Positions 107 to 1,550 of a DNA stretch of 2,770 nucleotides are shown here, in pieces (positions within the stretch are counted from its first letter, which is position 1; each line of letters begins with the position of its first letter). A program made the position numbers and the translations under genes. Where the stretch lies: IMG/VR virus record IMGVR_UViG_2654587571_000017, one strand, 5' to 3'. Source of the stretch: a virus (Duplodnaviria; Heunggongvirae; Uroviricota; Caudoviricetes). The notes beneath the pieces were generated by a model. The model saw only the letters and a program-made list of their open reading frames with translations, did no database searches and was not told the origin of the DNA.

Positions 107-661
107 TTATTTATCCCCTGCAGGAAACCTCTTATACAAAGTTGACACACCAACATCATAGATAATCGCCACCTTCTGGCGAGGAACTCCTGATGCAATT
201 AATCGTCCGGCCTGTTCCCATTGTTCTGGTGTAAGTTTGGGACGACGTCCACCAATTCGTCCCTGTGCGCGAGCAGCTTCCAGTCCAGCTTTTGTTCTTT
301 CAACAATCAGTTCACGCTCCATTTCAGCCAGGGCACCCATCACATGAAAGAAAAAGCGCCCCATTGGGGTACTGGTATCAATTGAATCCGTCAGACTACG
401 AAAGTTGATGCCTCGTTCGCGCAACTCCTCCACCAGCACGACAAGATGCCGCATACTGCGCCCCAGCCGGTCCAGTTTCCAGACCACCAGCGTGTCACCT
501 GCCGATAATGTCCTGAGCAGTTTTTTCAGTCCCGGCCTTTCGGACTTTGTACCGCTTATCTTGTCTTCAAAAATCAGCTCACATCCTGCACAGTTCAGCG
601 CATTACGTTGTAGATCTGTGTTCTGGTCATTTGTTGATACGCGTACATAGCCAATAAGCAT
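107..661 (-). CDS. pin: Site-specific DNA invertase, serine recombinase of the Hin/Gin/Cin/Pin family (184 aa from the ATG at 659-661; the 196-aa ORF in the track starts 12 codons upstream at 697)
   Basis: Translation begins MLIGYVRVSTNDQNTDLQRNAL, the recalled N-terminal signature of the invertase family with the catalytic serine in the VRVST motif. Further recalled family blocks are present: DTLVVWKLDRLGRS, GINFRSLTDSIDTS, MGRFFFHVMGALAEMERELIVERT, GRIGGRRPKLT and a C-terminal helix-turn-helix ending VSTLYKRFPAGDK. A GGGGGA Shine-Dalgarno-like sequence sits 6 nt upstream of the ATG at 661 (minus-strand sense). The stop is TAA at 107-109 (reverse complement). Confidence 0.95.
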   Translation of the reverse strand: MLIGYVRVSTNDQNTDLQRNALNCAGCELIFEDKISGTKSERPGLKKLLRTLSAGDTLVVWKLDRLGRSMRHLVVLVEELRERGINFRSLTDSIDTSTPMGRFFFHVMGALAEMERELIVERTKAGLEAARAQGRIGGRRPKLTPEQWEQAGRLIASGVPRQKVAIIYDVGVSTLYKRFPAGDK

Positions 662-687
662 GGTAGATCCCCCTGACAAAAGCAGGA

Positions 688-1101
688 ATGATGCCATTTG
701 CTCGTTATTTCTGCATTTTCATAAACGTTGGTTTGGGAGAAGCGGCAAAACGGGATGTAGGGACAGGGGAAAATCAGATACCGGACATGGCCTCTTTTGC
801 CAGTGGTGATGGATGGATGAAATTACCCAACGGTAAAATTCTGCAATATGGTCGAGGCGAGGCTATGCCGAAATTATCGACGCAAACAATGAGGATTACA
901 TTTCCTATCCCTTTCCCTAAAAAAGCGGACTGCGCCATTCTTACCCATTCTGGTGATGGCGGTGCGCCTTTAGGCGCTGGGCGAGGGTTCGTGATGACTG
1001 CAGAAGGCCCTACGTTAACCGGCTTTAATTCTGCTTACAGAACGTCATCAACCAGTGACACGGTATCTATGCATTACAGTTGGTGGGCTGTTGGTGAGTA
1101 A
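688..1101 (+). CDS. Phage tail-fibre protein, C-terminal variable (receptor-binding) cassette; probably has no initiation codon of its own and is expressed only when fused to a constant N-terminal part by inversion. The functional coding part probably begins at the crossover core near 728-730; 688 is only the first in-frame ATG.
   Basis: The frame is open from 667 to the TAA at 1099-1101. The translation ([21 protein letters not shown]...ITFPIPFP...[11 protein letters not shown]) resembles the recalled C-terminal domain shared by Mu S / P1 S / e14 StfE-type tail fibres (a KLPxGxIxQWG-like motif followed by a Gly/Ser/Thr-rich beta region). The ATG at 688 has no properly spaced Shine-Dalgarno sequence and lies in the invertase upstream region. 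The gene is followed 20 bp downstream by a tail-fibre assembly gene. Confidence 0.8.
   Translation: [137 protein letters not shown]
716..741. other. Recombination crossover site for the DNA invertase (hix/gix/cix/pix-like, 12-bp half-site + 2-bp core + 12-bp half-site)
   Basis: Sequence TTTTCATAAACG-TT-GGTTTGGGAGAA. The left half-site matches the recalled consensus half-site TTATCNAAAACC at about 9 of 12 positions. The reverse complement of the right half-site (TTCTCCCAAACC) matches hix-type half-sites (TTCTTGAAAACC / TTATCCAAAACC) at about 10 of 12. It lies 55 bp upstream of the invertase start and inside the 5' end of the tail-fibre variable reading frame, which is where the gene-proximal crossover sites sit in Mu, P1 and e14. 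Confidence 0.7.
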
Positions 1102-1121
1102 TTTTATTCAGGGTGATTTAT

Positions 1122-1550
1122 ATGAACGAATATGTTTATAGTGCCAGGCATAATGCTTTTTTCCCTGTGGATATGATTGATAAATATAAATCAGTAGGAT
1201 GGGATTTATCAGATGCTAAGGAGGTGAATCAAAATATTGTCAGTGAGTTTATGGCTGAACCGCCACAAGGAAAAGTCCGTATTGCCGGAGAGGATGGACT
1301 ACCTGCGTGGGCAGATATTCCTCCACCTACTCATGAAGAGCTTATTGAAATTACTGAATCAGAAAGACAGCTACTAATTAACCAGGCTAACGAATACATG
1401 AACGGTAAGCAATGGCCTGGTAAAGCCGCTATTGGTCGTCTGAAAGGTGAGGAACTGGCGCAATATAATTTGTGGCTGGATTATCTGGACGCACTGGAGC
1501 TGATCGATACTTCCGGTGCGTGTAGTGGCACACTAAATTTGGCCACCTGA
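1122..1550 (+). CDS. tfa: Tail-fibre assembly protein (Tfa / Mu U-like chaperone), with its 3' end disrupted by the IS insertion; the last 9 codons and the stop are encoded by the IS left end
   Basis: ATG at 1122 with an AGGGTGA Shine-Dalgarno-like sequence 7 nt upstream (the track's 1113 start is a GTG). The translation contains recalled blocks of enterobacterial Tfa proteins: [77 protein letters not shown]. After DTSGA (codons ending at 1520) the sequence becomes CSGTLNLAT-stop, which is encoded by the IS terminal inverted repeat instead of the expected conserved Tfa C-terminus (recalled as PDIEWP...). Confidence 0.85.
1521..1547 (+). repeat. Left terminal inverted repeat (IRL) of the IS3-family element
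   Basis: TGTAGTGGCACACTAAATTTGGCCACC. Positions 1532-1546 (ACTAAATTTGGCCAC) pair with the reverse complement of 2753-2767 (AGTAATATTGGCCAC) with about 3 mismatches. The 5'-TG start is typical of IS3-family ends. The exact outer boundary is uncertain by a few bp. Confidence 0.65.

Follow-up and report, generated by a model that had tools for sequence, protein, structure and literature searches.

A one-sided remnant of the e14 P-segment inversion switch adjoining an IS3-family element in Escherichia coli

The Pin/P-segment inversion switch of the Escherichia coli prophage e14 was already known in the 1980s and carries a RefSeq annotation, and it belongs to the same class of systems as the G segment of phage Mu and the C segment of phage P1, in which a serine invertase alternates the tips of the tail fibre. 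In E. coli K-12, inversion of the P segment in growing cultures was detected by sequencing and by polymerase chain reaction (PCR) (PMC4272514), and it has also been measured by quantitative PCR, with removal of either of the two repeats abolishing the inversion-dependent phenotype (Kirigo et al. 2025, PMC12529663). The stretch of DNA analysed here, referred to as the window, comprises 2,770 nucleotides of a Caudoviricetes record (IMG/VR virus record IMGVR_UViG_2654587571_000017), and it had been taken in a preliminary description, made from the sequence alone, for part of a host-range switch of the Mu G/P1 C/e14 type. This classification was correct, and it can be made more exact by placing the window in the P region of e14 itself. 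However, the window is a one-sided remnant of this known system and not a working switch, and very likely represents one half of the e14 P-segment switch that was inactivated by a deletion associated with an insertion sequence (IS). The anatomy of the locus, the homologies of its genes, the deletion, the missing partner site and the occurrence of both orientations in other genomes were all directly observed.

In the intact system, PinE dimers are expected to bind two inverted 26-bp pix sites, one located 54 bp upstream of pinE and the other at the junction between the constant and variable parts of the tail-fibre gene, and to bring them together in a synapse with the enhancer. The 2-bp core would then be cut by PinE and the strands exchanged, thereby flipping a segment of ~1.9 kb. 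Through the flip, the fibre would combine its constant N-terminal part with one of two tips, either a Gp53-like tip that has a Tfa chaperone of its own or a Collar-domain tip that is paired with TfaE. How catalysis proceeds and what the enhancer contributes are extrapolated here from established knowledge of Gin, Hin, Cin and Pin.

The whole window was found with 100% identity in three complete E. coli chromosomes, those of strains 602687, CD45 and PS1Thumoskin9, the assemblies of which originate from Bangladesh and China and from different laboratories. This window-carrying form was present in three of 5426 genomes. In the carriers, the locus has mcrA on one side and the icd side of the prophage on the other, and the recombinase gene is annotated as pinE. 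The order of genes in the carrier locus used for comparison (L001) is iraM, an icd fragment, mcrA and pinE, followed further on by icd, as in K-12 MG1655, in which the e14 genes are arranged stfP-tfaP-tfaE-stfE-pinE-mcrA. The window shares 96% DNA identity with K-12 from mcrA through the crossover site (to position 742). Because of this gene context, and because the predicted PinE protein is 97.8% identical to K-12 PinE, the window is assigned to the mcrA-proximal end of the E. coli e14 prophage, namely to the P region itself, beyond a mere likeness to e14. The window opens directly after the start codon of mcrA, which is on the minus strand downstream of pinE, and positions 1–106 are an AT-rich pinE-mcrA intergenic region, presumably including the mcrA promoter.

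The pinE gene (positions 107–661, minus strand) has an intact frame and encodes a serine DNA invertase of 184 amino acids (aa) (WP_000905000.1), the same protein as is found in intact prophages. The product includes the Pfam domains Resolvase (E 1.8e-51) and HTH_7 (E 1.5e-13), carries the YVRVST region of the serine-nucleophile motif (MLIGYVRVSTNDQ) that characterises the Hin/Gin/Cin/Pin invertases, and is 79.6% identical to Mu Gin in addition to its close identity with K-12 PinE. A longer open reading frame (ORF) on the pinE strand extends up to position 697, but this does not correspond to the annotated start. The invertase gene was therefore present as originally described, although it lies to the left of the region (661–1550) to which the switch had been assigned, and that region does contain the site, the cassette and the tail-fibre assembly gene.

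A pix crossover site of 26 bp is present at positions 716–741 (plus strand) and is made up of two 12-bp half-sites around a TT core at 728–729. It reads TTTTCATAAACG TT GGTTTGGGAGAA, an imperfect dyad, and is located 54 bp upstream of pinE. The 26-bp site was found once in the window and in none of 200 shuffled sequences. At 15 of 16 positions, its inner half agrees with the repeat TTGGTTTGGGAGAAGG that was published for the K-12 P segment (Kirigo et al. 2025, PMC12529663). The offset of the site from the invertase gene is that of gixR before gin: when the two sequences are equally framed and oriented to the invertase gene, the start of the site falls at index 39 (40 for gixR) and the start codon at 119 (120 for gin). 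To judge from these features of the sequence, 716–741 is a real crossover site with the expected two half-sites in 26 bp, and the proposal of a hix/gix-like site directly upstream of the invertase gene was borne out. In the fixed flank between pinE and the site (positions 662–715), ATG codons at 688 and 691 open a short leader.

A variable tail-fibre tip cassette (positions 729–1101, plus strand) reads away from the site and, in the present orientation, is without the constant N-terminal part of the fibre. The ORF that covers it (688/691–1101) encodes a Gp53-like_C domain (Pfam PF21882; E 1.8e-13). The cassette had been described as start-less, which is not strictly so, as its frame is opened by the two ATG codons (688 and 691) of the pinE-side flank and RefSeq annotates a coding sequence at 691–1101. 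The cassette shares 90–93.5% identity with the C-terminal end of the tail-fibre genes in P2-like phages, for example that of pro483 (93.5%), which fits the known modular exchange of fibre tips, and it is 99.2% identical to the C-terminus of a full fibre protein encoded by strain PK8568. When the constant part of the tail-fibre gene in EC05 (locus L002) was joined in silico to the window cassette at the core of the crossover site, an open frame was obtained.

The cassette is followed, as had been proposed, by a tail-fibre assembly gene, tfa (positions 1122–1550, plus strand), which encodes a Caudo_TAP domain (E 2.4e-22), and the window therefore holds a variable cassette together with its own assembly gene, starting at the crossover site. 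Only codons 1–133 of tfa, up to position 1520, are native. The product is identical to the 147-aa protein encoded by L002 at 133 of 133 positions and diverges thereafter, as the last 14 native codons (PDIEWPTPPAIQAR) and the stop codon have been replaced by nine codons and a stop supplied by the end of an IS. The protein comparisons that had been suggested all came out in favour of the proposed identities, as did the Pfam domains and the match of the cassette to the fibre end of pro483.

The remainder of the window is occupied by an IS3-family (IS911-like) element of 1258 bp (positions 1521–2770, plus strand), the last 8 bp of which lie beyond the window. Its orfA gene starts at 1593 and encodes an HTH_Tnp_1 domain, an A AAA AAG (A6G) frameshift motif is found in the orfA frame at 1853–1859, and orfB, which encodes an rve domain, ends at 2770; RefSeq annotates a programmed frameshift. 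The ends of the element, TGTAGTGG and CCACTACA, are of the TG...CA form and include imperfect inverted repeats, as in other IS3 (IS911-like) elements. In L001, the IS corresponds to coordinates 13521–14778 and has the ends TGTAGTGGCACAC and TTGACCACTACA.

To the left of the IS is codon 133 of tfa, and to its right is the middle of a truncated tail-terminator gene, and the junctions on both sides are identical in all three carriers. When compared with the intact prophage in MEI2A-0323 (locus L004), the two junctions in L001 (13520/13521 and 14778/14779) map to positions 21520 and ~32496, with ~10,974 bp gone. Gone with the missing ~11.0 kb are the second tfa gene, the second cassette, and the tail-fibre gene that carries both the partner site and the constant part, along with the genes for baseplate, tape measure, tube and sheath. 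The prediction that the second cassette, the second site and the constant part lie to the right of the IS is therefore wrong. No target duplication was found at the IS flanks (GCG on one side and AGG on the other), and the event was hence not a simple insertion but either a deletion associated with the IS or recombination of one IS copy with another.

An alternative explanation, that an intact switch was merely interrupted by a simple IS insertion, with its second half just beyond the IS and PinE flipping an enlarged segment, was considered. An arrangement of this kind does exist in UID2309220003 (locus L011), where an IS separates the two tfa genes without loss of either pix site, and where the segment is flipped in comparison with L004 and the flanks are collinear. 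However, the point of insertion and the orientation of the IS in L011 differ from those in the window, and the truncated tail-terminator gene after the IS, the loss of ~11.0 kb and the absence of a target duplication are common to all three carriers, making a simple interruption very improbable. As the IS is multi-copy, with 6–7 places per record detected in a search with the whole window, the IS junction and the deletion could also be envisaged as an assembly artefact of a repeated element. This can practically be set aside, as identical junctions on both sides were recovered in three independent complete assemblies.

Simple interruption of the switch is further opposed by the search for a partner site. 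In the 26.8 kb surrounding the locus in the window's own genome, searches with the pinE-side 26-mer, with the constant-side 26-mer from L002 and with a 19-nucleotide degenerate core, allowing up to three mismatches each, found only the site at 716–741, and a search of L001 for inverted repeats returned only short chance pairs. The preliminary description had proposed looking to the right of the IS for an inverted copy of the site and had named its absence within about 1–3 kb as refuting a switch; no such copy is present in the 26.8 kb. Two inverted sites flanking a segment in the same DNA are thus not found in these 26.8 kb of the window's genome, and neither are a second cassette and a constant N-terminal part outside the segment, though these are present in relatives. 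A working host-range switch, as deduced from the left half alone, would be wrong for the lineage that carries the window, and the correction has little meaning beyond correct annotation.

In the intact relatives, an inverted second site, a second cassette together with its tfa gene, and the constant part are all present. EC05 shares 99.9% identity with positions 1–1520 of the window, and the inverted partner site in this genome (L002 coordinates 14607–14632, minus strand) is inside the tail-fibre gene, 1863 nucleotides away. This partner reads CTCTCGAAAACC TT GGTTTGGGAGAA, such that the inner half and the core are identical to those in the window and the outer half includes five differences, which are expected because the outer halves belong to the fixed flanks. 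The partner site in L004 is likewise within the tail-fibre gene at a distance of 1863 nucleotides and, as in L002, has an inner half identical to that of the window. The alternative cassette in the relatives resembles K-12 StfE in encoding a Phage Tail Collar domain.

Both orientations of the segment occur in this prophage family. EC05 and PK8568 share the same alleles of PinE (WP_000905000.1), Tfa (WP_001008243.1) and TfaE (WP_047670916.1), and the segment is flipped between them. Similarly, when K-12 is compared with L002, the flanks are collinear and the interior aligns on the opposite strand. The junction between the constant part and the cassette, as constructed in silico, was found at full length in 74 E. 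coli genomes with up to 99.7% identity, and the pinE-cassette junction seen in the window was found in 278 genomes. The intact e14 relatives, as represented by MEI2A-0323 (L004 coordinates 20001–41520), are complete contractile-tail prophages with sheath and tube genes, Mu-like baseplate genes and an HK97-type head, and the pinE/P-segment module is at one end of the L004 prophage.

The window thus shares with the K-12 e14 P segment the locus, the gene order, the inner half-site TTGGTTTGGGAGAA, the pinE-side leader and one Gp53-like tip (StfP in K-12). However, the Gp53-like tip in the window is only distantly allelic to the StfP tip (26.7% identity), and the accompanying Tfa shares 45% identity with TfaP. 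In addition, the cassette orientation is opposite to that in the MG1655 reference, and the second half of the segment and the second site have been deleted. The e14 prophage of K-12 is itself cryptic, whereas the intact relatives of the window, such as L004, are full myovirus-type prophages.

As in the Mu G segment, the invertase gene reads away from the segment and the site has the same offset, the silent cassette (S/U or S′/U′ in Mu) and its chaperone gene are both directed away from the site, with the constant part belonging on the far side of the segment. However, the Mu segment is ~3 kb and forms a complete switch, the gix core is GA versus AA/TT here, and no significant match was found between the window cassette and S or between its Tfa and U. 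The P1 C segment also has a homologous invertase and alternating tail-fibre tips, but cin reads towards the segment, cixL overlaps the 3′-end of cin, and the segment is 4.2 kb.

In the P1 record, an "enhancer of Cin-mediated C-segment inversion" is annotated at nucleotides 19–90 of the cin coding sequence. The equivalent nucleotides of pinE (positions 572–643 in the window) include 58 of 72 positions identical to the P1 cin enhancer and 56 of 72 identical to gin, with the blocks GTATCAACAAATGA and GCAGGATGTGA invariant among pin, gin and cin, suggesting a putative recombinational (Fis-dependent) enhancer. A simple scan of the 5′ region of pinE with the Fis consensus was noisy and missed the counterpart of the first conserved block, and the alignment to the enhancer annotated in P1 was used in its place. 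Across the enhancer homologue, the conservation of third-codon positions was not clearly above that in the rest of pinE.

Because one site is left, PinE would be unable to invert anything here. It would have no inversion substrate at this locus, and the Gp53-like cassette would be frozen next to pinE, in a prophage that would have no tail left for it to serve. Some observations weigh against an inactivated half-switch. The pinE frame is intact, and PinE may act on sites elsewhere. Positions 560–900 of the window match three places in a carrier chromosome (NZ_CP189657.1), whereas the cassette and tfa match one; therefore, two further loci resemble the 5′-end of pinE or the site, and given these a distant partner site is formally possible. 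Both of these places are probably the invertases of other prophages. The element at 572–643 is a positional enhancer homologue, predicted from homology to P1.

Pin, Gin, Cin and Hin are known to complement one another, and the locus might matter in these genomes only as a source of PinE that acts in trans on the invertible segments of other prophages. In favour of this, the intact pinE gene has the same product as its counterpart in working prophages, there are two candidate loci in the carrier chromosome, and PinQ, the invertase of the Qin prophage, inverts the e14 segment in trans in K-12 (PMC12529663). However, as the further loci probably carry their own invertases, PinE would be redundant, and a role limited to action in trans is considered unlikely.

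Inactivation of the segment by the deletion leaves the cassette in an arrangement that also occurs in K-12, and the ORF at 691–1101 could be something other than silent. It is built like StfE2, a chimera formed in K-12 by inversion of the segment, in that a pinE-side leader (17 aa) is followed by a Gp53-like_C tip in the orientation seen in the window, and an AGGA sequence at 683–686 is located 4 nucleotides before the ATG at 691. StfE2 expressed from a plasmid was reported to cut the adsorption of phage T2 (Kirigo et al. 2025, PMC12529663). The ORF could accordingly be envisaged as encoding an StfE2-like protein that serves the host and has been locked in the ON arrangement by the deletion. 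The tip sequence is different, however, with the low identity to the K-12 StfP tip given above, and the arrangement in the window is fixed by a deletion whereas StfE2 arises by segment inversion. Furthermore, no promoter-like site was found before the ORF, its chaperone gene (tfa) is truncated, and the rarity of the locked form among the genomes searched gives no sign of selection. An expressed, host-serving protein is for these reasons distinctly improbable. The scan of positions 560–1620 for promoters and terminators found nothing near the start of the cassette or upstream of pinE on either strand, and its two hits equalled the number expected from shuffled sequences, such that it is uninformative on the transcription of pinE or the ORF.

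A stronger form of the same proposal is that the deletion converted a flipping switch into a fixed StfE2-type gene with which the host would mask a surface receptor against phages, making the locus a naturally locked-ON version of the recombinase-activated defence reported for K-12. This is rated marginally less probable still. For specialists, it is of interest that the frozen orientation is the one that yields the StfE2-type chimera in K-12, which has been reported to block T2 adsorption.

Beyond the IS, the carrier prophage (L001 coordinates 14775–24651) is of the e14 type and heavily eroded, with head, portal and terminase genes remaining. A second IS3 element is found at L001 23286–24448, at the point where intact relatives resembling L004 continue with lysis genes. 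The regions for the integrase, regulation and lysis that L004 possesses are missing from the carrier prophage, in which neither an integrase nor an excisionase gene is annotated before icd.

Related IS3-family (IS911-like) elements were found inside Pin-type invertible segments in three independent contexts, namely in the window, in L011 and in E. coli W (locus L010). The IS in L011 (coordinates 5713–6970) is 91.8% identical to that in the window and is a simple insertion in the opposite orientation with a 3–4 bp duplication, located 11–14 bp further along the same tfa 3′-end. In E. coli W, a 100%-identical copy of the IS (L010 coordinates 5734–6991) lies between a tfa remnant and a tail-fibre gene in a P2-like prophage. 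The same IS also seemed to be linked to a recombinase gene near ypjA, but this was judged coincidental, as the IS and the recombinase fragment are in a different order and context. It may also be of specialist interest that the tfa-tfa junction of Pin-type segments has been hit by related IS3-family elements more than once. The conserved 3′-end of tfa (GCGCCAGATATTGAATGGCC) loosely resembles the inner inverted repeat of the IS (AATATTGGCCAC), a similarity that may reflect a target preference.

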